A program made the translations under genes and the position numbers. Positions 8,404-30,961 of a stretch of 32,537 nt of DNA are shown here, piece by piece. The stretch comes from an uncultured Muribaculaceae bacterium (GTDB taxonomy: Bacteria; Bacillota_I; Bacilli_A; RF39; UBA660). The notes beneath the pieces were generated by a model, which saw only the letters and a program-made list of their open reading frames with translations, was not told the origin of the DNA and ran no database searches. Location of the stretch: assembly GCA_964538005.1 (NCBI GenBank), contig CAZIDO010000003.1:1-32537 (forward strand), given 5' to 3'. Within the stretch, counting starts at the first letter, position 1. The number at the start of each line of letters is the position of its first letter.

Positions 8404-9879
8404 TTAAATAACAATTGCAAATAGATTTCCAGAACCTTTGTTAACTAATTTAGATAATGTTTGTTGTAATTTGTATCTAACACCTTCTGGCATTAATGAT
8501 AATTTAGCTTGAATTCCTTCTTGAACAATAACATCTAAGCTACGACCAAATATTTCACTTTTCCAAATGTTTGAAGAATCTGTTTCTTTATCTTTCATTA
8601 AGTAATTAATAAGTTCTTTGCTTTGAATTTCTGACCCAATGATTGGCTCAAAAGTACTTTCAACATCTACTCTAATCATATGAATAGATGGTGCGACTGC
8701 TTTTAACTTAATTCCATATCTACTACCTTGTTTAATTACTTCTGGTGTATCTAAGGCCATATCAGCTAAAGTTGGGCTGGCAACCCCATATCCCGTACTT
8801 TTTACCATTTTCAAAGCGCCTTTAATTTGATCATATTCTAGTTTGGCTTCATTGTAATCTTGGAATAATGTTAATAGTTGTGATCTATTTTCAATATCTA
8901 CCCCAATTATTTCTTTTAATACTCTATTATAAAGTTCATTTGGTGCTTTTAAAGTTACATTAACTTCACCTGTTGATGTATCAACTTCTGATAAATAAGC
9001 TTTACTTATATTTTCACAAGTTTCTAAACGACTTGTTATACTATCGATATCTCTTAATTTATCTATTTCATAAATACTTTCTCTAATCGCATCCATGTAT
9101 GATTTTTTCAACCAATTGTTTGGCGATAAACACGCTACCCAATCAGGCATTTCGACATTTATTCTAACAACTGGGAATTCGTATAATGCTTCTCTTAAAA
9201 TACCATAAGCATCTCTTTCACTCATGTTGTCAATATTCATTGGTACTACTGGAACATTATAATTATCTCTTAAATCTTCTGCTAAGCCTTCTGTTTCAGG
9301 TAACATTGGATGAGTTGAATTTAAAATAACAATAAATGGTTTACCTATTTCGGTTAACTCACCTACTATTCTTTCTTCAGCTTCTAAATAATCACTTCTT
9401 GAAAATTCTCCAATTGAACCATCTGAAGTTATTAGTACTCCAATACTTGAATGGTCTTTAATTACTTTTTCAGTACCAATTTCAGCGGCTTCAACGAATG
9501 GTATTTCTTCTTCATACCAAGGTGTTCTAACCATTCTTGGCCCATTCTCATCTTCATATCCTCTAGCGCCATTGATAATGTATCCTACACAATCAACTAA
9601 TCTAACATCAGCACTAAAGTCATCTATTTTGATTTTAGCTGCGTTACTTGGAACAAATTTTGGTTCAGTTGTCATGATTGTTTTACCTTGTGCTGACTGA
9701 GGTATTTCATCTAAGGTTCTTTTTCTTTCATATTCGTCTTCTATATTAGGAACAACTAGGTTTTCAATAAAGCGTTTTATGAATGTTGATTTACCCGTTC
9801 TAACCGCACCTACTACTCCTAAATATATGTCCCCACCTGTTCTTTCTGTTATACTTTTTATGATATCAATTTTTTCCAT
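8404..9879 (-). CDS. spoIVA: Stage IV sporulation protein A (spore coat basement-layer ATPase)
   Basis: N-terminus MEKIDIIKSITERTGGDIYLGVVGAVRTGKSTFIKRF is near-identical in pattern to Bacillus SpoIVA (Walker A GAVRTGKST). 491 aa. Confidence 0.95.
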   Translation of the reverse strand: MEKIDIIKSITERTGGDIYLGVVGAVRTGKSTFIKRFIENLVVPNIEDEYERKRTLDEIPQSAQGKTIMTTEPKFVPSNAAKIKIDDFSADVRLVDCVGYIINGARGYEDENGPRMVRTPWYEEEIPFVEAAEIGTEKVIKDHSSIGVLITSDGSIGEFSRSDYLEAEERIVGELTEIGKPFIVILNSTHPMLPETEGLAEDLRDNYNVPVVPMNIDNMSERDAYGILREALYEFPVVRINVEMPDWVACLSPNNWLKKSYMDAIRESIYEIDKLRDIDSITSRLETCENISKAYLSEVDTSTGEVNVTLKAPNELYNRVLKEIIGVDIENRSQLLTLFQDYNEAKLEYDQIKGALKMVKSTGYGVASPTLADMALDTPEVIKQGSRYGIKLKAVAPSIHMIRVDVESTFEPIIGSEIQSKELINYLMKDKETDSSNIWKSEIFGRSLDVIVQEGIQAKLSLMPEGVRYKLQQTLSKLVNKGSGNLFAIVI

Positions 9880-12259: not shown

Positions 12260-12960
12260 TTAATTTTTATTAATAAGTCTTACTATATAACTAGAAATAT
12301 TAGCTGGTAAGACAAAATATGAACATTGAATGATAGAATCTGTATTTTGATGCGGATATACTATAACTTTTCCAGATAAACTTATATTTATTCTCCCGAC
12401 AGTTTTATATATCGGATAATTGTCAAAATAAATATTTACTATAATTTCCTCATTTCTGAATTCTTCTCTTATCTGTTGTTCACAATCAGTGCTATCTCTT
12501 AACAAACTTTTAAATTGATTTGTTATTTGTTTATCTGTTATTTTTATATTTTTATTTTATTTATTTTCTAAAACTATTGTTGTGTTTTTTCCATATATAT
12601 TTGGTAATTGGATACCCTTTTTCATTAGAAAATGTTTATCAGATAATGAATTATAATTAATTTGTATAAAGTTTACTGCTGAATCGTTTTCATAAATTGC
12701 TATTTTAGTATTTGTTCTTTGATATGAAACAGTTTCTAAATCAATGGGGGAACTATCTGCATAAGCTTTATCTGTTTTTATAATTTTTCCCACAGGATGC
12801 CAATACAATGCTTCTTCATATACTTCTCCATTATAGTACGCATATTTATAGTTATCTTTTATAAACGAAAACGCTATTATCCAAAAAAATAAATATATCC
12901 CTATCGTTATAATAAGAGTTCCAGTCCCAGCAATTATTATAGTTTTTTTATTTTTTTCAT
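12260..12960 (-). pseudogene. Decayed small membrane-anchored protein gene (one A-run frameshift plus one in-frame TAA)
   Basis: The ATG at 12960 reads MKKIKKL then stops. The -1 frame is open from there (…KKTIIIAGTGTLIITIGIYLFFWIIAFSF…, a TM anchor) into track ORF 12557-12808. That ORF and 12260-12505 share a frame and are split by a single TAA (12557-12559). Neither downstream piece has an ATG or SD of its own. Confidence 0.45.
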
Positions 12961-13010
12961 TCTATCATCCAATAATTAATGTTTAAAATATCTACTATTT
13001 AATAATCATG

Positions 13011-13613
13011 TTATGGTATAAAATAATTTGTTCTTATTCCATACTTTTCAAATAAAAATTTTCTATTTTCATTTGTCAGACCTTTTAAAACATTTGGCAT
13101 CTGTTCCACTATCTTTTCATATAAGTTATTTTTACTCACTGAAAGGTCAAGTGGTTTTTTTGAATCTGTCAGCCAATTACTTATCAATTTATATTTTTTA
13201 GTTTTAGTTATAATTCCTATTTGATGTATGAAATCACCAGTACCATTTCTAACCATCAATTTTGCCTTTTTATAAATTAACAATATATCATCATTTTTAA
13301 TAAATTCTAAATTATAGATATTTACAATATAATTATCAGTTAAAATATTGAAACCGTTTTTATAAAGAACATTGTCTAATTCGTCATTAATCAATTTCTT
13401 GTTATTTAATTTTAAAAATCTATAACTTGGTAATATCCACTTTAATAGTTCACTAATAATTACTATTGACATAATAAAAATAACAACTTGTAATGCTAAG
13501 GAAAATAAAGATAACTTGAGTTGGAAAACAAGTATCAAAAATAAAAATGCTAAAAATATTTGAGAAAATTTTATTAAACTAAATTTTACATACACTTTAT
13601 TTATATTTTTCAT
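13011..13613 (-). CDS. Two-TM membrane protein; candidate immunity protein for the Rhs C-terminal toxin
   Basis: 200 aa, ATG with AGGAGA RBS, 41 nt downstream of the Rhs stop. TM hairpin approx aa 16-58, then a ~140-aa soluble domain. The immunity role is inferred from position only. Confidence 0.6.
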   Translation of the reverse strand: MKNINKVYVKFSLIKFSQIFLAFLFLILVFQLKLSLFSLALQVVIFIMSIVIISELLKWILPSYRFLKLNNKKLINDELDNVLYKNGFNILTDNYIVNIYNLEFIKNDDILLIYKKAKLMVRNGTGDFIHQIGIITKTKKYKLISNWLTDSKKPLDLSVSKNNLYEKIVEQMPNVLKGLTNENRKFLFEKYGIRTNYFIP

Positions 13614-13654
13614 ATAACGATTCTCCTGTTCAATATTAATTTATTATAAAGGCT

Positions 13655-16600
13655 TTACCGAGGAACATTATATCCAAATTTCACATGCCCACCGGCAAAG
13701 TAGTGAAAGTCATAATCAATTCCAATAAATATTTCTTCATTTGACGCCTCGATTGAAAAAATGTTTTTAATAGAAAAAGCTATACTATTACTATGTTTTG
13801 ACTCAGGACAATTAAATTGTTCTATTTCATTAATACTAATATGTTGGTCGTTAGTAGTGAAAGGATATGGATGATCATAATTATGAGTTAGTACAAATGG
13901 ACCAATGGTTACTGATAGGCAATTTTCAACTATTTGCTTTGTACCATTCACGGTTTCAACAGTGCTTATATCGTTGTATGCACTAAAAGGTATTTTGGGG
14001 TTGGATATACCAGTACCATATCCATAACTAGCAACATAATTATTTTTGTTAATAATGCTTCCGACTTTGGTAGCAGTTTTTTTCCCAATATTAACAACAC
14101 TTTTTACTGCGTTAACTACTTTCTTTACAACTTTTGCAACCTTTTTCACAACTTTTTTAGTTGTCTTTTTTATCCAATTCCATATGGCTCCACGTCCACT
14201 TGAATCTACCTTGTTTATTGGATCATTATCTACATATGCATATAAATTATTTCCTGTTAATGAATTATTTTGTATCATTACATTATCAGCATTAATAAAT
14301 CTTCCCCATTTTGGATTATAATATCTACTATTTAAATAGTATAATTTTGTTTCTTTATCATAGTAATAACTTCTATATCTAAATGGATTTATATGCGCTA
14401 CATGTTTTTCATCAATTATATCATTATTGTCTTTATTTTTTATTGATATAATGTTTCCCCAACTATCATATTGGTATTTGGCAACCAAATTATAATTGCT
14501 ATCTAGTAGTCCTATTATATCATCTTGGTTGTTTTTTAAATAATAATATAGCTTTTCATTATATTTAAATCCAATTAAATCATCTATATCATTATGTATA
14601 TAGTATATCACAGCACTACCAATATTTTCAAATATTATTTTATTCCCTTCTAAAAGGTATACAGTTTTTAAACCATTAACAACTTTACTTGTTCTAATAC
14701 CATTATTATCATATTTATAATTTATTATATAATTTGAATCTGAATATGAATTTAATTTCCTACCATTTATCCAAGATAGTGAAGCATCTCCAATTGTTAG
14801 AGGGTTACCTATTTCATCATAAGTTATTTCTTGATTATTAAATTTAGTTAATTGGTCTTTCCATTTTAAATTGTTATATTCATATATATCCTGATCAATT
14901 AAATTATCAGTACCTAGCTCAAATATTTTTTTGAAAAGTATATTACCTAAATTGTCATAAGTATATTTAACTGTCTGATTAGTTAAATAATTATCTTCAC
15001 TAATAAGTTCATTGTATTCATCATAATAATACTTATTTTCTAAAATACCATTATGATATATATGGGTTATGTTATTTAGTTTATCAAATCTATATGAAAA
15101 TTCAGCATCATTCATGGTAAACTTTTTAACTAAAGTAGATGTTCTTCTACCATTTGTAACATACTCATAATTAGTTTTAATTTTATTATCAATATTACTT
15201 GACTCTATTCTGCCTAGGTTGTCATAAGCATAATTAACTTCATTTGAATCAAAAATCATTTTAGTAAGAGCATCATCTTCATCATATATTTTTTTTACTT
15301 CTTTTGAAAAGATAGGTCCATCATATTCAATGTCTGTTATATTACTATTTATATCATATTTATATTTAATTCCAAACTCATTACTTCTATATTCAATTAA
15401 TCTTTTTCCAAGATCATATTTATAATTATAAACATCATCGTTTGATATTACTTTTAATAAATCCCCATTATTTCCATATTTAAAATTATAAGTGTTATCC
15501 ATTTTATTAATAGTTTTTACTCTATCAAATTCGTCATATTCAAAATTAATTGTTTGATTATTCCCATATATGGTTGTTAATAAATTACCATTACCTCCCT
15601 CATAGTTATTAGTAATAAGTGATATATCATCACCAATTTTAATTGATTTCGTATTTAAAAATTCATCATATATAAAATTATAATCTCTTGTTTCTTGGGT
15701 AATTTTACTTAATAGATTATTATCATTATAATTATATTCTACTTCTCTATTTCCATTTTTAATTGATATAGGTCTTCTTTTGCTATCATACTCATAATTA
15801 GTTGTTTGATTTTTAGCATTAGTAACTGATTTAGTTATTCCTGTAATTAAATCTATATCATAAGTGGTTTCATTGAGATTACTATCTGTAACACTTTTAA
15901 TAAATTTTCCATCTTCGGTATATTTCGTATACGTTTCAATGAATTCTTTCTCATTGTTGGTTTCAAAGAAAAATTCAAAACTAGAGTCTTCATCAACAAA
16001 GAACTCACCAATTAAATTTTTATCTTCTACTTTTACATATTTATTATCTTTTTTTACGGCTAATGAATAACTACCATTCTTATTTTTAATTAAAGTAAAT
16101 AATGAATTATCGCCATTAAATACGGTTAATAGTAATTCATCATTATAAATAGTAAAGTATTTATCAGGAACAAGTGAGTGACTTATTTTATAATACTCAT
16201 CTATTTTTTCTAGCTTCCATAAATCATGATGACTGCATTCTTCTTTTAATTTTATAGAGTTCATAATATTCCTTAAATATAAATTGGTTCCCTTTGCTCT
16301 TATTTTATATAATCCTTCAGTTATTTCGCCATTAATACCTTTTTTGTTTACTCTAGTTACGACTGGATTATTATTTATATCATATTTTATTTCACTACAA
16401 ATACCCATTTCTGAGATACTATTAATTAATCTGTCAGGAACATTATTGTCATATTCATACATTAATTTTTTACCTTTTGGATTAGTTGAATTTATTAGCT
16501 GATTATTTTTGTTGTATTCAAAAGAACTAACTTCCTTATTAGTACCAACTACAGTTTTTAAATTACCTTTAGTATCATAATCGTAGCCACTTGAACTTAC

Positions 16601-19600
16601 ACTTTTAAACAAAGATAAATTAGTTATATATAATTCATTTGCATCACCTTCCTGATTGAGATAAATCTTGAATTTATTATAACCCGCTTCTGTGGTATAT
16701 GATGCTGAAAAATATTGCCATTCTTCCTCACTTGGATTTAAATAAGTTATTGGTACACCGTGTTGGGTATGCCAATCATCTGGATCATTGTAAAAGATTT
16801 GAAGCCATACTGCACTACCATTAATTGCTCCTAAACCATCTGCTGAAATCCCCTTATTTTTATACCAGAATGATATTTGATATTCATCATCTTTTTCTCC
16901 ACCAATATTAAATTCTTTTGACATATATGTATCATATTCTGGATCCATTTTTATTTTTAAAGCTTTGTTACCATCTTCTAAAGTAACTACTTCGTGACGT
17001 GTTGAATCATTATCAGAACTACCATATTCCCAGTCACCTAAACCATTTTTAAAATCAGAATTTTCTAAATAATTAAAATGATTGACAACTTCTCCCTGTT
17101 CTAACTGAATATCATCCATATATGATGTTCCACTACTTGTAAAATATATTTTTAATGATAAATCACTAACTGAATCAAGAGGATAGTAAATTGTAACGTC
17201 AGTTCTATTAAACCCATCATTAATTGGTACCCACTTACCTTTTTCTTCAACTATTTTATTATCAGCATCTAAATATGAAAGACCAATTCTTACACTATTA
17301 TTGTTTTTAATAAATGCACTAAAAGTATAGTAATTGCCTTTTTTAACACTTACATTTTGGATAACTTCTTTTTCAGCTTCAGTACGAACCATTTTTAAAC
17401 TTTTTAGTCCGCTATTAGCGCATTCCTCTGATATACTCAATTCCACACCGTCGGTAGGTTGAAAATAAATATTATCTGTTTCAAAACTAATGTTTTTCAG
17501 TAAATTATTAACATATTTAACTGGTATTTTATTTGATATTAATTTATTTTTGTATTCATCGTATTCACCATATCTATGGACTGTTCCATAAGCATTAGAA
17601 ATATTATTTTTATCTTTTAAATTACTAGTGCACACAGGATTACCTTCTTCATTGAAACTAATTACTGTAGCTCTATTTTTGTTATCAATAATTGTTGTGG
17701 ATTTATTGCCATATTCAATTGTAAAATAAGCTCCATTTTGATTATTTATTCCATATTCTGTTACTTTCTTTATTTTATATGGTTTTTGTTCATAATATTC
17801 GTAATTCATACTGGTGCCATCAATATCAGTTATTTTATTTATTAAATTACTTTCATTGTAAGTAAAATAAGTATATCCCTCTAAATTTAAAATACTATTA
17901 ATTTTGCCATTAGTATAATTTAAAGTTACTGTTTTATCTGGACTGATAATTGAAATTTTATCTGTTTCATATGTTATATTTATTTTTTGATTATTAGCGT
18001 CAATTATTTCCCCAATCAAGTTATTAGAATTATAATTAATTGTAATAAAATTACCTTTTATATCTTTTATTTCAGATAAATAACCTATATTATTTCTTTT
18101 GCTAAATTTCATATTATTGCCATATTTATCTTTTAAAATATAGTAATCTGAATTTACTTCAATCTCCATATTTAAATTGTCTTCATCTTGGTAAATACCA
18201 TTTTCTTCGTAAAAATAATGTAATGTTCCATCTTCATCGAAATATTGAAGATAATTGGTAGTACCTATAGTTTCAGGCTTTATAGTTTGCCATAAATTAA
18301 ATTTATAACCAATTCCTATTCCATTATCATTATTTAAAACCACATCATTGGTATTATAATATAAGCTTAAATTAGCTGGCATTTTACCACCTATAGTTGA
18401 ACCTAGTCCAAATGCAGCAATAAGATTTCCATTATATGTATTTTCATAAACCGTACCATTATTAAATGATTGTGATTGATAGTTCATATAACTTTCTAAT
18501 CCATTTTGGTTACGATAAACTATTTGTAATCTTGGGTGAGGACTGTCACCAGTAATTGTATTATTTTTAGAATAAAATGCTGGAAGCATGTTTTGATCAT
18601 ATACTTCTTTATGAGATTTTATCATTATGCCATTATTAGGAGTTCCTGTATACCATTTTTTAACTAATGATGTTATATTCCCTCTAGAGTATGAAGGGAT
18701 AATATGGGTTGTAATAACATTACCTTCCCAAGTATATTCCTCATAACTTCTGGAACACCAAAATGCCGCCTCAATTCTCGCATCATATTTGTCATTCATA
18801 TTAGACCAATTGGCTCCGGTTTCTGTAAAATCAGTAGTTAATCGATGTACATCAACCAACTTTATACTATCTGTTCGTGGCATCAATGTATAATCAACTA
18901 AATTAATGTTAGCTTCATAGATTTGACTACCTGTTCCTATGGTCGGAAGTTCAAACTTTAAAAGGGTTCTATTTATAACATCATTGCCATTTACTTTCTC
19001 TACTCCGGCCTTTAAAATATCTTGACTATTTCTATCAACATTTGTGTCCCATGGATAAATATAAGTATCATACACATTGTTTTTAGTATCAGTTGAAATA
19101 GTTGGATCGATAATTACAGGATATAAAGTATTACTATCTTTTAACCATTCTGCATCTAAAACCAGATCAAGTTTATAGTAATCTTTCATCTTTGTTAATT
19201 TATAATTAATGTTATTATTTGTTTTATTATTAGCATCAATCATATAAGGCCCATCTAAAGTAAATAAAATTTGATTGTTTTTTAAAACAACTATGTTTTT
19301 ATTTCCAAGTTCTAAATCTAAATCAGTTTTTAATACAAAACTTAATTCGCCTATATTACCCCTATCTTTTAAAATGAAACTTTCTTTTATTTTAGTAGAA
19401 AGTATTTTATATTCTAAATCGATATTTTCAAAAACATTTTCATATTTAATTTTTGAAACAAATTTTGAAGATGTTTCTGTTAAATTTATAGGCACCCTAT
19501 TTCCATCAACTAATTCAATGCTTAAATAGTGGTTATCAATCTCAAATTTCATTAAAGTTCCTGCACTATTTTCTTTAAAATAAGTTTTGTATGAATTATT

Positions 19601-19774
19601 CTTATTAATGTAATAATTATTTTGTTTAATTAATGTATTATCAATTTCCTCATATTTTCCATCTTTTATAAAATGAATATCGTCGGAATACATTTTAGCT
19701 ATAATAGTACCATTTTCTTGGAGAAAATGTTTTTCTTTTTTACCCCTTTTATCTAACAGTTCTATTTCTTTCAT
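13655..19774 (-). CDS. Rhs/YD-repeat polymorphic toxin, 2039 aa
   Basis: Many YD repeats (YEYDSKRRP, YAYDNLGRI, YTYDNLGNI, YKYDNNGIR, YQYDSWGNI ...). Rhs-associated core NPFRYRSYYYDKETKLYYLNSRYYNPKWGRFINAD...NLYAYVDNDPINKVDSSGR at aa 1796-1861. DNRLRE-like N-terminal module (…VINRTLLKFELP…). 178-aa variable C-terminus. Confidence 0.95.
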   Translation of the reverse strand: MKEIELLDKRGKKEKHFLQENGTIIAKMYSDDIHFIKDGKYEEIDNTLIKQNNYYINKNNSYKTYFKENSAGTLMKFEIDNHYLSIELVDGNRVPINLTETSSKFVSKIKYENVFENIDLEYKILSTKIKESFILKDRGNIGELSFVLKTDLDLELGNKNIVVLKNNQILFTLDGPYMIDANNKTNNNINYKLTKMKDYYKLDLVLDAEWLKDSNTLYPVIIDPTISTDTKNNVYDTYIYPWDTNVDRNSQDILKAGVEKVNGNDVINRTLLKFELPTIGTGSQIYEANINLVDYTLMPRTDSIKLVDVHRLTTDFTETGANWSNMNDKYDARIEAAFWCSRSYEEYTWEGNVITTHIIPSYSRGNITSLVKKWYTGTPNNGIMIKSHKEVYDQNMLPAFYSKNNTITGDSPHPRLQIVYRNQNGLESYMNYQSQSFNNGTVYENTYNGNLIAAFGLGSTIGGKMPANLSLYYNTNDVVLNNDNGIGIGYKFNLWQTIKPETIGTTNYLQYFDEDGTLHYFYEENGIYQDEDNLNMEIEVNSDYYILKDKYGNNMKFSKRNNIGYLSEIKDIKGNFITINYNSNNLIGEIIDANNQKINITYETDKISIISPDKTVTLNYTNGKINSILNLEGYTYFTYNESNLINKITDIDGTSMNYEYYEQKPYKIKKVTEYGINNQNGAYFTIEYGNKSTTIIDNKNRATVISFNEEGNPVCTSNLKDKNNISNAYGTVHRYGEYDEYKNKLISNKIPVKYVNNLLKNISFETDNIYFQPTDGVELSISEECANSGLKSLKMVRTEAEKEVIQNVSVKKGNYYTFSAFIKNNNSVRIGLSYLDADNKIVEEKGKWVPINDGFNRTDVTIYYPLDSVSDLSLKIYFTSSGTSYMDDIQLEQGEVVNHFNYLENSDFKNGLGDWEYGSSDNDSTRHEVVTLEDGNKALKIKMDPEYDTYMSKEFNIGGEKDDEYQISFWYKNKGISADGLGAINGSAVWLQIFYNDPDDWHTQHGVPITYLNPSEEEWQYFSASYTTEAGYNKFKIYLNQEGDANELYITNLSLFKSVSSSGYDYDTKGNLKTVVGTNKEVSSFEYNKNNQLINSTNPKGKKLMYEYDNNVPDRLINSISEMGICSEIKYDINNNPVVTRVNKKGINGEITEGLYKIRAKGTNLYLRNIMNSIKLKEECSHHDLWKLEKIDEYYKISHSLVPDKYFTIYNDELLLTVFNGDNSLFTLIKNKNGSYSLAVKKDNKYVKVEDKNLIGEFFVDEDSSFEFFFETNNEKEFIETYTKYTEDGKFIKSVTDSNLNETTYDIDLITGITKSVTNAKNQTTNYEYDSKRRPISIKNGNREVEYNYNDNNLLSKITQETRDYNFIYDEFLNTKSIKIGDDISLITNNYEGGNGNLLTTIYGNNQTINFEYDEFDRVKTINKMDNTYNFKYGNNGDLLKVISNDDVYNYKYDLGKRLIEYRSNEFGIKYKYDINSNITDIEYDGPIFSKEVKKIYDEDDALTKMIFDSNEVNYAYDNLGRIESSNIDNKIKTNYEYVTNGRRTSTLVKKFTMNDAEFSYRFDKLNNITHIYHNGILENKYYYDEYNELISEDNYLTNQTVKYTYDNLGNILFKKIFELGTDNLIDQDIYEYNNLKWKDQLTKFNNQEITYDEIGNPLTIGDASLSWINGRKLNSYSDSNYIINYKYDNNGIRTSKVVNGLKTVYLLEGNKIIFENIGSAVIYYIHNDIDDLIGFKYNEKLYYYLKNNQDDIIGLLDSNYNLVAKYQYDSWGNIISIKNKDNNDIIDEKHVAHINPFRYRSYYYDKETKLYYLNSRYYNPKWGRFINADNVMIQNNSLTGNNLYAYVDNDPINKVDSSGRGAIWNWIKKTTKKVVKKVAKVVKKVVNAVKSVVNIGKKTATKVGSIINKNNYVASYGYGTGISNPKIPFSAYNDISTVETVNGTKQIVENCLSVTIGPFVLTHNYDHPYPFTTNDQHISINEIEQFNCPESKHSNSIAFSIKNIFSIEASNEEIFIGIDYDFHYFAGGHVKFGYNVPR

Positions 19775-21166
19775 TTATAACACTCTTTTCCACATATAAA
19801 CAACTAAATATGGCGGCATATTACCAGCGGCCCCAGTTCCTGTAGTTCCGGAAGTGCTAGCATTAGTAGTTATACTATGGCTATGGTCACCACTGTTTTC
19901 AGTGTAACTCATTTGACTATAATCACCATTGGCTGATCCTGGTGCGGTAATGCATCTCCAATTTACTTGAACTCCAGAACCATAAGTAGATGTTCTCCTT
20001 GATGTAATATGACTATGATCCCCACTATTTTGGGCAGTACCACTTAATGCTGGAATAGTGTGCGCATGCGTTTGTAATTCAGCACTTCCACCAGTTGTAC
20101 CATTTGCATATGTCCCTCCAGCACCTAATAAAAATCTGTCTTTAATTTGTTCCCAGGTTCCACCAAATAAAACTGTTGGATTTGTATTATCAACTGACAT
20201 ATAAATACTGCCTATTGGATATATCGTTCCTAGTTTTTCATTTATTAAGTTTTGGACATCGGCAACTGTCATCGTTCCACCGGCATCACCTTTTTCACCT
20301 TTTGGTAATACCAAATTTAATACTTGACTCGGACTATCACCGGTAATCGTTGCACTCGCTTCATCACCATGAGAAACAGTTCCAATAATTAAATTGTTGG
20401 CTGGCCCAATATCACCTTTTATTCCCTGGTCACCTTTAGCGCCTTTTAGTGGATTAAATACTGTAAGTCTTGATCCCTTAGCAAACTGTATTTGGCTATC
20501 ATCTAGTGATAAACTTATTGAATTAATATTATCAAAAGTTTGGGCAAATACACCACCACCAAACCATATTGACTGTCCTCCACCAACCGTTCGATAAAAT
20601 TTTAAAGTATAATTCACTTTTTTCTCTCCGTTAGGGTTTTCAGATATATATAATCGTCCTTCGGCAATTACTGGAAATTCATTGTTTGGTCCATTAGTCT
20701 GCAAAAATTCACTTATATCATCACCGCTTTGAACATAATTGAATCTTGAAGTTAAAGTACCGTTTCCATATATATTTCCACTGGCATTTATGTAACTATG
20801 ATGGTATCCAGTTGTTTGGTCGTTTATTTTTATTTTTATATCTGTAGCTATAGTTGAATTTGTATATCCTATAGCAATAAATTCATATACTCCTCCTTCA
20901 TTTAAAGCATCTAAATTGTTTATTTTTATTATTGGTAAATTATTTTCTAAAATAACTTCACCTGCTACATTTGTTTGAATTTTAGATGTAATACTATTTA
21001 CAATCAAATTACCTTCACTATCTAAACTAAATTTATTATTATTTGAAGTAATACAATCAACACTTGCATTGTTAACCTCTAAATTAAGTTTATCTTCAGT
21101 TTTAGTAAACGCATCTTTAAAATAAATATCATCTAAAGTAAATTCATTATTATTTTCTATATTCAT
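19775..21166 (-). CDS. Phage tail-fibre-like protein with collagen Gly-X-Y tracts, HxH motifs and a tail-collar-type C-terminus
   Basis: GAKGDQGIKGDIGP and GEKGDAGG. C-terminal YPIGSIYMS...LFGGTWEQIKDRFLLGAG...THAHT...SGDHSH (x2)...NMPPYLVVYMWKR. The stop TAA (19775-19777) directly abuts the Rhs ATG. ATG at 21166 preferred; a GTG at 21175 is the track start. Confidence 0.85.
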   Translation of the reverse strand: MNIENNNEFTLDDIYFKDAFTKTEDKLNLEVNNASVDCITSNNNKFSLDSEGNLIVNSITSKIQTNVAGEVILENNLPIIKINNLDALNEGGVYEFIAIGYTNSTIATDIKIKINDQTTGYHHSYINASGNIYGNGTLTSRFNYVQSGDDISEFLQTNGPNNEFPVIAEGRLYISENPNGEKKVNYTLKFYRTVGGGQSIWFGGGVFAQTFDNINSISLSLDDSQIQFAKGSRLTVFNPLKGAKGDQGIKGDIGPANNLIIGTVSHGDEASATITGDSPSQVLNLVLPKGEKGDAGGTMTVADVQNLINEKLGTIYPIGSIYMSVDNTNPTVLFGGTWEQIKDRFLLGAGGTYANGTTGGSAELQTHAHTIPALSGTAQNSGDHSHITSRRTSTYGSGVQVNWRCITAPGSANGDYSQMSYTENSGDHSHSITTNASTSGTTGTGAAGNMPPYLVVYMWKRVL

Positions 21167-21203
21167 TGTTTTCACAACCTTTCTTTTAAATTATTAATCC
21201 TTC

Positions 21204-21250
21204 AAAAAAGAAGAATATAACGAAAGAGATTTTTCCCTTTCACTATATTC
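21204..21250 (-). terminator. Strong intrinsic terminator between the HTH gene and the fibre-Rhs genes
   Basis: Minus strand GAATATAGTGAAAGGGA-AAAA-TCTCTTTCGTTATATTC: 17-bp stem including 3 G.U pairs, followed by TTCTTTTTT. Confidence 0.65.
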
Positions 21251-21254
21251 CTCA

Positions 21255-29102: not shown

Positions 29103-29130
29103 AAAAAAGAAGAATAGCATTCTATTCTTC
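29103..29130 (-). terminator. Intrinsic terminator of the holin gene
   Basis: Minus strand GAAGAATAG-AATG-CTATTCTTC (9-bp stem; the TAG stop lies inside the 5' arm), followed by TTTTTT. Confidence 0.75.
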
Positions 29131-29511
29131 CGTATCTTTTTTATTTAAATTATTGAGTACTGTTTTTATTTGTTCAGGAATTGGTAAGCCTAGTTCTACC
29201 GCGTTTTCTATTATTGATATGCCTTCATTAACAATGTAAAAAACAATTGCTAAATAACGGAGATCTGTAGCTCCAAAGACATTATCTAAGCTTACAGCGA
29301 TCCCAACGACGAAAAATACTAATATTTTCTTAAATATACCCCGAAATCCTACTTCACTAGATACTTCGTGGTTTGCTATTGCTTTCATTATTCCGGTCAA
29401 ATAATCCATTATTGTAAATGTTATTAACGTCATTAATAACATATCAAATCCGCCAAGGAAATGACCTAGTACACCACCAATTACTGATATTATCACTTTA
29501 ATTGTTGTCAA
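29122..29511 (-). CDS. Holin, toxin secretion/phage lysis family (Phage_holin_4 / TcdE-like)
   Basis: 129 aa, 3 TM. MDYLTGIMKAI...SSEVGFRGIFKKILVF...IVNEGISIIENAVELGLPIP is the family signature. TTG start with GAAGGAAG RBS. Confidence 0.8.
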   Translation of the reverse strand: MTTIKVIISVIGGVLGHFLGGFDMLLMTLITFTIMDYLTGIMKAIANHEVSSEVGFRGIFKKILVFFVVGIAVSLDNVFGATDLRYLAIVFYIVNEGISIIENAVELGLPIPEQIKTVLNNLNKKDTEE

Positions 29512-29703: not shown

Positions 29704-29780
29704 GGGGAATTAGCTCAGTTGGCTAGAGTACCTGCTTTGCACGCAGGGGGTCAAGGGTTCGAATCCCTTATTCTCCACCA
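29704..29780 (+). tRNA. tRNA-Ala (anticodon UGC), CCA encoded
   Basis: Cloverleaf readable by eye. Acceptor GGGGAAT/ATTCTCC with the G3:U70 Ala identity pair, anticodon loop CTTTGCA, T-arm GGGTTCGAATCCC, 3' ACCA. Confidence 0.95.
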
Positions 29781-29881: not shown

Positions 29882-30961
29882 TTATGCTAAAGCATCGAGG
29901 ACAGCAATAGCTTTATCCTCGTCGCCTGGTAGCATATGTGAATATGTATTGAGTATTAGCTCAATATCAGAGTGTCCTATGCGTTTCGCAATAACAGTTA
30001 TAGGAACACCCTTTGATAATAATAAAGATACATGGCTATGTCTAAAGTCGTGTATTTTTATTTTATTAACACCAGCTAGATTACAGTAGTAATCTTTTTT
30101 TCTTGCCACGGTTGTCGTTGCTAATGGATTTAGACAACCAAATATATACCAACTGTCATCAAATTCTACAAACTTATGGCACTTTCCTTTATATTCGCAT
30201 AGTCTTGATAGTAAATGTCTATCAAGTTTAACTTTCCGATATGACATTTCCGTTTTAGGACTATTAATCATATTTTTTCCATCAACCTTCCTTCTTGTTA
30301 GGGTTTTATTTATAAGTAAATAGTTATCATGTAAATCATTCCAAGTAAGAGCCAAGCACTCGCCCTGCCTTATACCAATTAAATATAAAACTTCAAAAAA
30401 TAGTTTATACATATCATTATCAATTACACTAATAAATTTCTTAAATTCTTCATAAGACCAAATATTATATTCCTTTGGTATTTCATCACGTTTAGAAAAA
30501 TTACCAACTTGACTAGCAACATTAACCTTAAGCCCGTAAAATTTAACTGCATAATTTAGCATTGTTCTTACTGCTCCATGAATTGCACTTTTATATTTAT
30601 AGCAATAGCCTTTATCATCTAGTTGTTTTTGCCATCTTACATATAATGAAGCTGTAATTTTTTTTAGCTCATAATCTTTAAAATACGGTAATGCATGTAT
30701 TTCAATACAGTTTTTAACACTTCTAAATGAATTATATTTTAACTTCGTTTCCATATGTTCCTTATAAATTTCCCACAGTTTTCCAAATGTAATATCACAA
30801 TACCCATCTTTGGTAGCTATTACAAAATCTCTTTCTGCCTCAATAGCATCTCTTTTTGTCCTAAAGTCACCATTTTGGTATTGTTTTCTATTGCCAAAAC
30901 TATCAGTAGCATATACACGATAGTACCAATGTTTGGATTTCTTATCTTGATATGCTGGCAT
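29882..30961 (-). CDS. int: Tyrosine site-specific recombinase (phage-type integrase)
   Basis: N-terminal SAM-like arm-binding region. Catalytic region with GIRQGECLALTW (Arg), HDFRHSHVSLLL (His-x-x-Arg) and GHSDIELILNTYSH (His...Tyr). Lies next to the 3' end of a tRNA gene. Confidence 0.9.
   Translation of the reverse strand: MPAYQDKKSKHWYYRVYATDSFGNRKQYQNGDFRTKRDAIEAERDFVIATKDGYCDITFGKLWEIYKEHMETKLKYNSFRSVKNCIEIHALPYFKDYELKKITASLYVRWQKQLDDKGYCYKYKSAIHGAVRTMLNYAVKFYGLKVNVASQVGNFSKRDEIPKEYNIWSYEEFKKFISVIDNDMYKLFFEVLYLIGIRQGECLALTWNDLHDNYLLINKTLTRRKVDGKNMINSPKTEMSYRKVKLDRHLLSRLCEYKGKCHKFVEFDDSWYIFGCLNPLATTTVARKKDYYCNLAGVNKIKIHDFRHSHVSLLLSKGVPITVIAKRIGHSDIELILNTYSHMLPGDEDKAIAVLDALA

Follow-up and report, generated by a model that had tools for sequence, protein, structure and literature searches.

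A phage fiber-like protein as a candidate targeting subunit of an Rhs toxin cassette in uncultured gut Bacilli

Introduction

Known Rhs toxins are delivered by adaptors of the type VI secretion system (PAAR, VgrG), through the Sec pathway (WapA) or in the form of Tc toxins. Beyond WapA and cases of the type VII secretion kind, it is poorly understood how Rhs proteins exit from Gram-positive cells and find their targets. Here, we analyze an Rhs gene and the gene for a phage tail fiber-like protein that precedes it in a 32,537-nucleotide (nt) stretch of DNA from an uncultured bacterium of the GTDB lineage RF39 (contig CAZIDO010000003.1 of assembly GCA_964538005.1), referred to below as the window. 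An earlier reading of the window, made from its sequence alone, had described the fiber gene as an orphan coupled to the Rhs gene. Our results show that the window carries a reduced member of a family of fiber–Rhs cassettes and suggest that the fiber-like protein may direct a phage-derived antibacterial toxin system to its targets.

The described systems closest to this locus each share part of its make-up. With Rhs/WapA-type systems, it has in common YD repeats, an Rhs core, a variable toxin, a putative immunity gene further downstream and orphan modules that have been displaced. Tc (ABC) toxins, which in Yersinia are released by a holin and an endolysin, resemble it in that an Rhs-type cage works together with a separate receptor-binding protein. 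However, neither the window nor the related loci encode a TcA-like pentameric injector (~2500 amino acids, aa), the partner protein of the cassette has 200–700 aa and a gp10-type head, and the cassette is Gram-positive. In R- and F-type tailocins, fiber and lysis genes come together with those for a tube (with or without a sheath), a tape measure and a baseplate. The relatives of the window have fiber, regulator and lysis genes, but the annotated loci of close relatives, to which this comparison was confined, contain no genes for a tube, tape measure or baseplate.

In the pathogenicity locus (PaLoc) of clostridia, the sigma factor TcdR and the holin TcdE accompany a clostridial toxin (PMC3369941, PMC4597214). 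The logic of this locus and of the clostridial bacteriocin locus UviA/UviB–BCN5 is similar to that of the cassette: a small alternative regulator of the sigma type goes with a large toxin that has no signal peptide and with holin or lysin genes as found in phages. They differ in that the toxin of the cassette is an Rhs protein with a fiber partner and that its regulator matches only region 4 and a generic extracytoplasmic function (ECF) sigma factor model, which does not establish membership in the TcdR/UviA group (group 5). Another point of comparison is gp18 of Bacillus phage PBC1, annotated as 'YD repeat protein / virion structural protein', which has the same N-terminal layout (DUF7948 and CBM96) as the Rhs protein of the window but is a 1063-aa tail protein encoded in a full tail module, with no detectable Rhs shell or toxin. 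Its gene directly follows that of the tape measure protein, where Dit normally lies; no Dit could be found in such phages, and gp18 of Bacillus cereus siphophages has been proposed to act in adsorption (PMC9128512).

The fiber-like protein has counterparts among phage proteins. Its C-terminal ~150 aa, referred to as the head, match T4 gp10 (PF21939; 2FKK), to which the heads of gp11 and gp12 are related, in profile and fold, including the PPY...W.R strand. However, gp10 is a baseplate wedge protein that carries this domain in a 602-aa myovirus chain, whereas the head encoded in the window sits at the end of a short protein that stands alone, and baseplate genes are absent from the vicinity. 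The same ~150 aa are 35–43% identical to the C-termini of the 'antireceptors' of the Lactobacillus delbrueckii phages LL-Ku, Ld3, Ld17 and c5 and 54–63% identical to the heads of prophage fibers from gut Bacillota with quite different N-terminal parts. One of the latter (P0079, 54%) is encoded in a siphophage prophage tail module with Dit/Tal (Sipho_tail), fiber-repeat and endolysin genes. Both the antireceptors and the prophage fibers differ from the protein of the window by their shafts or N-termini and by the absence of its N-terminal neck. The components of the cassette (gp10-type head, Rhs toxin, holin–lysin pair) are all of known kinds. Their conserved combination appears to be undescribed: in the full-text literature, from whose coverage many subscription papers are missing, we found no account of an Rhs toxin with a conserved phage-fiber partner and phage-type regulator and lysis genes.

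Results

A fiber–Rhs gene pair conserved in gut Bacilli

When one genome per species (GTDB) was scanned with an alignment of the fiber family, at least 549 relatives were confirmed. The fiber gene is no orphan, and the family is found in hundreds of uncultured gut Bacilli. Synteny was counted in the best 80 of these at least 549 loci, all of which come from uncultured gut Bacilli, Erysipelotrichaceae, 'Tenericutes' or CAG-type metagenome-assembled genomes. In 75 of the 80, the gene directly downstream encodes a full-length Rhs protein that resembles its counterpart in the window in the N-terminal, middle and core parts alike, the opposite of homologs occurring only in prophage tail modules. 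In the exceptions, the fiber gene is followed by housekeeping genes (L016) or the end of the contig (L019), the locus contains a 105-aa remnant (L063), there is no Rhs gene within 8 kb (L092), or Rhs and lysin genes lie upstream instead (L083).

The closest full-length homologs (613–704 aa, 57–76% identical) belong to cassettes whose order was read in L001, L005, L006, L008 and L010. A sigma-like gene is followed by the genes for the fiber, an Rhs protein of ~2060–2110 aa, a variable small protein (e.g., an ankyrin protein or products of 157 or 199 aa), a 100-aa transmembrane protein, a holin and a GH25 endolysin, with an 83-aa gene of these relatives matching holin families in PHROG. Some cassettes lie on a conjugative element-like backbone, others in chromosomal contexts. 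No genes for tube, sheath, tape measure, Dit, Tal or baseplate were found in the annotated loci of close relatives; the wider loci (L013–L092) were searched only with queries derived from the cassette. Lysis genes were surveyed in those 46 wider loci in which the sequence continues for at least 3 kb beyond the Rhs gene, by a Pfam scan of the 77 open reading frames (ORFs) of 180–450 aa lying >500 nt downstream of it, which replaced a search with GH25 and Amidase_2 seeds alone that had undercounted lysins. These ORFs comprise nine M23 peptidases, two GH25 proteins and six LysM proteins, a tally that is an undercount because only ~3.5 kb were available per locus, and further include orphan Rhs toxin tips (e.g., Ntox44 and Tox-WTIP).

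The stop codon of the fiber gene in the window (TAA, 19775–19777) directly abuts the Rhs start codon (ATG, 19774–19772) with zero overlap, as had been noted before. This junction is kept within the species, in which the coupled translation proposed in the sequence-only reading is plausible, but it is no trait of the family. The gap between the two genes mostly measures ~1–40 nt and sometimes gives way to a short overlap or widens to up to ~120 nt. Moreover, 17 of the 80 loci contain between the two genes a conserved ORF, mostly of 105–135 aa (65–158 aa overall), that is missing from the window (e.g., L014 11125–11532, L036 11238–11603 and L038 11235–11600). The idea of a matched stoichiometry, which had been derived from the junction, was thus overstated. 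The product of the intervening ORF looks like a coiled coil followed by GIE.KLYYEIV..G.NVTKA.DKV....STIWKNYYPKVK, a motif that by eye resembles a helix-turn-helix (HTH), and gave no convincing family match.

Modular make-up of the fiber-like protein

The fiber ORF extends from 19775 to 21175 on the reverse strand if read from a GTG codon, but we take the ATG at 21166 as its start because it is preceded by an AAAGG Shine-Dalgarno sequence and coincides with the start of the homologs. The motifs previously listed for this ORF are all present, at most 3 nt from where they had been placed (Table 1). The protein has neither an N-terminal hydrophobic segment nor a signal peptide. NCBIfam holds no model for it, and its one copy at NCBI is annotated as 'hypothetical'. 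Its characterization as phage tail fiber-like is well founded: Pfam, PHROG, sequence identities and Foldseek all indicate that it represents a mosaic of phage fiber modules.

The only Pfam family detected in the protein (E 0.01) is Gp10_C (PF21939), which covers aa 314–462 with 67.3 bits (cut-off 27; E 3.6e-18), and PHROG tail-protein families match it down to E 6e-18. In the PDB, a phmmer search with the single protein returned nothing meaningful, whereas the family profile identified the C-terminal domain of T4 gp10 (2fkk, E 6.6e-7), with an alignment spanning the PPY...W.R strand. The same structure was the best PDB match (probability 0.99) in a Foldseek search with an AlphaFold2 (AF2) model, in whose head confidence is only moderate. 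This model was based on an alignment of 95 homologs and reached a predicted local distance difference test score (pLDDT) of 66; one built from the single sequence (pLDDT 34) was useless. The C-terminus, previously classed as tail-collar-type, is indeed a phage-type end with the expected motif, but the domain is of the gp10 type. In a 24-member family alignment, the N, PPY, W and R of this terminal motif are invariant, as is the first histidine of the first His-x-His (HxH) motif, and both histidines of the second HxH motif are at least 90% conserved. These motifs recall the metal-binding HxH of T4 gp12 and may bind metal ions as well. Collectively, the C-terminal part has the features of a true phage receptor-binding head.

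The collagen-like tracts are present, as reported earlier, but they are very short (~4 and ~2 Gly-X-Y triplets, separated by ~45 aa), and most family members have none. The module to which they belong (aa 241–305) is 48–53% identical to minor tail proteins of Gordonia phages, recurs in many phage-sized contigs and is common in phage minor tail proteins. When aa 60–305 were used as a query, the homologs retrieved contained this short phage collagen/minor-tail module only, with no enrichment of the middle domain that precedes it. In the AF2 model, pLDDT values of the middle domain mostly lie between 63 and 93 and drop to 53–56 over aa 131–160. Foldseek relates this domain to many phage proteins of ~180 aa and fiber domains in BFVD (target-normalized TM-score 0.5–0.69) and, weakly, to folds resembling carbohydrate-binding modules (CBMs) in the PDB. 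It is missing from the 385-aa and 200-aa forms of the family.

Across the family, these modules occur in different layouts. The commonest one (~385 aa) joins a 166-aa N-terminal domain to the neck and the head. The closest relatives of the window (~615–700 aa) additionally contain the middle domain and the collagen module. Proteins of ~185–220 aa, found in ~35 of the 80 loci, consist of neck and head alone, whereas in the window and a few other clusters the neck comes first and is followed by a long body. Proteins that lack the N-terminal domain, of which clusters P0379, P0384 and P0395 are further examples, thus occur often and alongside intact Rhs genes.

Distribution and co-variation of neck and head

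The neck, which has no Pfam or PHROG match, is present in all 80 genome loci, as opposed to one of the 80 best-matching viral contigs from IMG/VR. All of these contigs carry the head and none an Rhs gene; in the only one with a neck (L145), the gene lies at the contig edge beside RecT. Among 50,697 records of isolated phages, no neck was detected even at E ≤ 10. In a search of 1.84 billion cluster representatives, the neck alone retrieved 198 clusters (50% identity), in whose proteins (up to 723 aa) it is located around residue 1, 150–230 or 270–335.

We then compared pairwise divergences over 53 loci (Spearman's rho with Mantel p). Divergence of the neck follows that of the N-terminal 700 aa of Rhs (rho 0.52, p 5e-4), whereas divergence of the head is only loosely related to that of the neck (rho 0.18, p 0.013) or the Rhs N-terminus (rho 0.17, p 0.032) and bears no relation to that of the Rhs core part (rho 0.00, p 0.50). 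This pattern points to modular swapping of heads on a co-inherited neck–Rhs unit, reminiscent of the attachment and receptor-binding ends of phage fibers. The notion of a receptor-binding adaptor for the toxin, raised in the sequence-only reading, agrees with these data as far as they concern a head that is shared with phage receptor-binding proteins and varies independently of Rhs, and a neck that co-varies with it; the physical interaction of the two partners is what we infer.

The Rhs toxin and its putative immunity protein

Its repeats, core, variable toxin and displaced modules identify the Rhs locus as a polymorphic toxin system, in which the gene directly downstream would provide immunity. 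The Rhs protein shows no hydrophobic stretch at its N-terminus. It contains DUF7948 (aa 104–225), a CBM96/DNRLRE domain (aa 243–418), further CBM-like domains, and the shell and core (aa 1769–1860), whose only counterpart in the PDB is a weak match to YenC2, and it ends in a variable toxin of ~180 aa. The N-terminal 240 aa (19055–19774) link it to phage tails: aa 3–234 match phrog_37549 ('virion structural protein', E 5.6e-6), aa 5–235 are 24.7% identical to PBC1 gp18 (L178 8977–12168), and DUF7948 and CBM96 follow in the same order in gp18. An NCBIfam hit to a 'phage head spike fiber' domain stays just under its cut-off (35 versus 36 bits). A homolog search with the N-terminal 450 aa returned only fragments of <800 aa, and no fiber–Rhs fusion ('Rosetta stone') proteins emerged from the searches with the Rhs N-terminus or the neck.

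The C-terminal toxin (aa 1870–2039; 13658–14167) has no Pfam or PHROG match. It begins with a lysine-rich, amphipathic-looking stretch, followed by a β-rich region. The cognate 200-aa protein is 29% identical to the product of the 199-aa gene of L006, which occupies the same position behind an Rhs gene with the same C-terminal type. The hydrophobic N-terminal stretches of the 200-aa protein hint at a membrane-acting toxin.

Regulator, terminator and leader RNA

The product of the first cassette gene, in which only region 4 of sigma factors is recognizable, exceeds the cut-off of the NCBIfam model TIGR02937 (sigma70-ECF; 45.8 versus 42.9 bits) and is 41–49% identical to the sigma-like proteins encoded at the same position in L001, L005 and L006. 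It had no tblastn match in phage or plasmid collections, and its assignment as a TcdR/UviA-type or phage late regulator was dropped for this reason. The hairpin between the regulator and fiber genes corresponds to a palindrome that is kept in L001 and L005.

Just upstream of the fiber gene, seven of eight related loci contain the pemK RNA motif (Rfam RF02913; 35–60 bits, gathering threshold 34.8), located at 9842–9921 in L001, 9949–10004 in L005, 8587–8641 in L006, 9841–9920 in L008, 9847–9913 in L020, 9784–9862 in L048 and 9880–9935 in L089; the window has none. The spacer holding this motif is more conserved than the proteins, and the 3' hairpin of the motif includes the Shine-Dalgarno sequence and the start codon (AUG) of a short ORF, MELISNQS.DY..., that lies upstream. 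The cassette thus provides the orphan pemK motif with a concrete operon context. As a side observation, many canonical cassettes have a conserved 165–178-aa gene upstream of the sigma-like gene (L001 8413–8949; L005 8416–8913), whose product looks HTH-like at its C-terminus and could not be matched to any family; in the window, SpoVIF takes this place.

A trimmed cassette in the window

In a DNA alignment to L001, the window retains the regulator, the terminator and ~45 bp around the fiber start codon but skips ~262 bp of the spacer (promoter and pemK leader) and, in frame, the 498 bp (166 codons) that specify the N-terminal domain. Homologs of the 100-aa, holin and GH25 genes are absent after the Rhs gene of the window cassette; the sole holin gene of the window lies 8 kb away, whereas the relatives have theirs within the cassette. 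The window copy is a trimmed version, and its expression and release, if any, must occur by other routes.

Four sister assemblies of the same species show ~99% DNA identity at the locus, with an identical 463-aa fiber protein and the same TAA–ATG junction, and six contigs carry the identical fiber protein. In one of these assemblies (L094), the Rhs protein has a different C-terminal toxin, and the tip and 200-aa gene of the window are displaced downstream as an orphan module with 99% identity (L094 19229–21392; window 12945–15108), a classic case of Rhs tip replacement within one species. In two of the four, the independent assemblies L095 and L097, codon 674 of Rhs is changed from TAT to TAA (equivalent to ~17753–17755 in the window), while the fiber protein is unchanged. 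We conclude that this is a typical, actively recombining Rhs locus, trimmed in the species and broken in some strains.

Table 1. Positions of the cassette, its parts and the holin, tRNA and integrase genes in the window
Feature	Position (nt)	Strand	Remarks
Small sigma-70-like regulator, 160 aa	21255–21737	-	Sigma70_r4_2, E 1.7e-8; first cassette gene
Terminator-like hairpin	21210–21253	-	20 bp stem, then T-run; -22.1 kcal/mol, z -5.1
Fiber-like protein	19775–21166	-	463 aa plus stop
Neck (aa 1–66; DDIYFKDAFTKTEDKLNLEVNN...NNKFSLDSEGNL)	20969–21166	-	Family signature, best-conserved family segment; proposed Rhs-docking part
Middle β-sandwich domain (aa 67–240)	20447–20968	-	AF2 model and Foldseek; closest relatives only
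Short collagen-like tracts flanking phage minor-tail module (aa 241–305)	20252–20446	-	PHROG tail families, aa 240–305
gp10-type head with HxH motifs and variable insert	19778–20251	-	Pfam Gp10_C; proposed receptor-binding part
Motif GAKGDQGIKGDIGP	20402–20443	-	aa 242–255
Motif GEKGDAGG	20276–20299	-	aa 290–297
Motif THAHT	20057–20071	-	aa 366–370
Motif SGDHSH, first copy	20009–20026	-	aa 381–386
Motif SGDHSH, second copy	19877–19894	-	aa 425–430
Motif NMPPYLVVYMWKR	19784–19822	-	aa 449–461; near C-terminus
Rhs polymorphic toxin, 2039 aa	13655–19774	-	No signal peptide; YD repeats
Candidate immunity protein, 200 aa	13011–13613	-	Directly after Rhs; hydrophobic N-terminal stretches resembling membrane helices
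Holin, toxin-secretion/phage-lysis type	29122–29511	-	PF05105, TIGR01593
tRNA	29704–29777	+	Adjoins stand-alone holin
Tyrosine integrase	29882–30961	-	Adjoins tRNA and holin

Discussion

On balance, we lean towards the view that the product of the fiber gene is the subunit by which an antibacterial, phage-derived Rhs toxin cassette is targeted, the antibacterial role being probable because of the presence of immunity genes. Given the observed synteny, modularity and homologies, docking, release and killing could proceed as follows. The small sigma-like protein would turn on the operon, and the fiber-like protein, presumably a trimer like other gp10-type heads, would build up together with Rhs in the cytoplasm, since neither protein has a signal peptide. 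The neck may then dock onto the N-terminal DUF7948–CBM96 module of Rhs, which resembles a phage tail-tip protein, as suggested by the co-variation and strict synteny of the two. Lysis by a holin and a peptidoglycan hydrolase, encoded in the cassettes of close relatives but not in that of the window, would be the simplest way out of the producer, because signal peptides are missing and lysis genes come last in the cassettes of the relatives. Outside the cell, the exchangeable head, by its homology to phage receptor-binding heads, and the lectin-like modules of Rhs would bind cell-wall receptors of related bacteria. Finally, following standard Rhs logic, the cage would deliver its toxin, whose polymorphism along with that of the immunity gene is evident from the loci, while the downstream immunity protein would shield the kin of the producer.

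Several observations weigh against this proposal. Lysis genes are recognizable in only about one quarter to one third of the wider loci examined, and leader, N-terminal domain and lysis genes are all missing from the window itself, in which a strong terminator separates the regulator from the fiber gene. Overall confidence in the AF2 model is no more than moderate, and it is low where the head is variable. Moreover, the correlation between neck and Rhs could reflect plain linkage combined with recombination of heads, Rhs has carbohydrate-binding modules of its own and so does not strictly need another subunit for targeting, and the nonsense codon in the sister assemblies may mean that selection on the locus is relaxed in this species.

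The fiber-like protein may serve Rhs in a capacity other than targeting, for instance as an assembly or stabilizing factor or as a release adaptor similar to the chaperones and adaptors of type VI-secreted Rhs proteins, or it may be an independent adhesin or decoy that travels along. The conservation of the gene pair, the highly conserved neck that co-varies with the Rhs N-terminus, and the CBM96 and other lectin-like modules of Rhs would all suit such a role. Nevertheless, we judge it improbable, since the most variable, recombining part of the protein is a bona fide phage receptor-binding head, as expected for target recognition rather than for a chaperone, and minimal members of the family retain precisely the neck and the head. 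Similarly poor prospects attach to the idea that both proteins are accessories of a phage tail-like particle (a tailocin, a prophage or an element resembling a gene transfer agent) whose tube and baseplate genes reside elsewhere in the genome, with the N-terminal module of Rhs acting like Dit at the tail tip and the fiber hanging from it. The phrog_37549 match and the likeness to PBC1 gp18, encoded at the Dit position, fit this arrangement, as do the near-cut-off spike fiber match and the extra 166-aa domain of many members, which could be an attachment domain. However, tail genes are missing from the annotated loci of close relatives (wider loci were queried for cassette genes only), none of the 80 best head-bearing viral contigs has an Rhs gene, and the cassette brings its own regulator and lysis genes, on conjugative element-like backbones. 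A further, more novel reading is one that we consider unlikely though somewhat less so: the tail tip-like modules of Rhs may oligomerize and hold trimeric fibers by their necks, giving rise to a free, tail-less 'baseplate-only' particle with several Rhs cages that is released by lysis and aimed by swappable heads. The sequence-only reading had also raised the possibility of a collagen filament resembling BclA that displays Rhs on the spore surface. The host is indeed a spore former, with SpoIVA and SpoVIF flanking the cassette, and the protein does contain two Gly-X-Y tracts, while one or two runs of at least four triplets occur in 9 of its 11 closest relatives of full length. We rejected this idea, to which we attach next to no credence, on account of repeat length, domain content and family distribution: there are just ~6 triplets instead of the dozens expected of such a protein, the C-terminus is gp10-like and not C1q/TNF-like, almost no ~385-aa protein among the 120 best homologs has a run of at least four triplets, and the relatives carry holin–lysin release genes. 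In addition, inspection of the sequence by eye brought to light no N-terminus of the kind that targets proteins to the exosporium, a point on which no formal search was made.

Whatever the function of the family, the copy in the window might be an inactive relic that is poorly transcribed, cannot be released and is decaying. A comparison with its 11 closest relatives of full length shows that the promoter/pemK leader and the N-terminal domain have been lost from it; it has no holin or lysin gene after Rhs and a strong terminator ahead of the fiber gene, two sister assemblies have the Rhs nonsense codon, and a small downstream ORF appears frameshifted. Such a state is conceivable, but we regard it as doubtful. 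The fiber, Rhs and immunity ORFs are intact in the window, as are fiber and Rhs in L094, the fiber protein is identical across the four sister assemblies in a locus of ~99% DNA identity, and toxin tips and immunity genes are still being swapped within the species. Furthermore, forms lacking the N-terminal domain commonly accompany intact Rhs genes, and a holin gene of the toxin-secretion type is located 8 kb away.

If the fiber-like protein is indeed a targeting subunit, the pairing of a phage head with Rhs under a phage-type regulator and lysis genes would constitute a distinct delivery route for polymorphic toxins and show bacteria putting the host-recognition modules of phages to a new use. 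Protein toxins could also be retargeted on this natural, modular scaffold if its head is exchanged. A baseplate-only particle, in turn, would represent a new class of Gram-positive bacteriocins controlled by a dedicated sigma-like factor and a pemK-type leader RNA.

Surroundings of the cassette in the window

All genes of the cassette lie on the reverse strand, in the order regulator, hairpin, fiber, Rhs, 200-aa protein and degenerate small ORFs, and are flanked by core genes of a low-GC spore former, among them SpoIVA, HU, SpoVIF and Der. Scans of the window proteins against Pfam and other families revealed no phage structural genes, including the tail morphogenesis genes for tape measure, Dit, Tal and baseplate. 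The earlier statement that phage structural genes are missing nearby therefore holds, with the qualification that a holin and an integrase gene are found 8–10 kb from the cassette. The holin–tRNA–integrase arrangement recurs in the sister assemblies L094 and L095, and the stand-alone holin could provide an alternative release route for a cassette without a holin of its own.

The small ORFs at 12557–12808 and 12260–12505 were considered as holins and rejected, because they lack transmembrane segments and bear no similarity to the holin or 100-aa genes of the relatives. A longer reading of the first of these regions (12557–12960, reverse strand) begins with an N-terminal hydrophobic segment, appears to change frame within A-runs close behind its ATG (12960) and resumes in the frame of the 83-aa ORF listed for the window. 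Either the decay of an orphan immunity gene or an error in sequencing may account for this.

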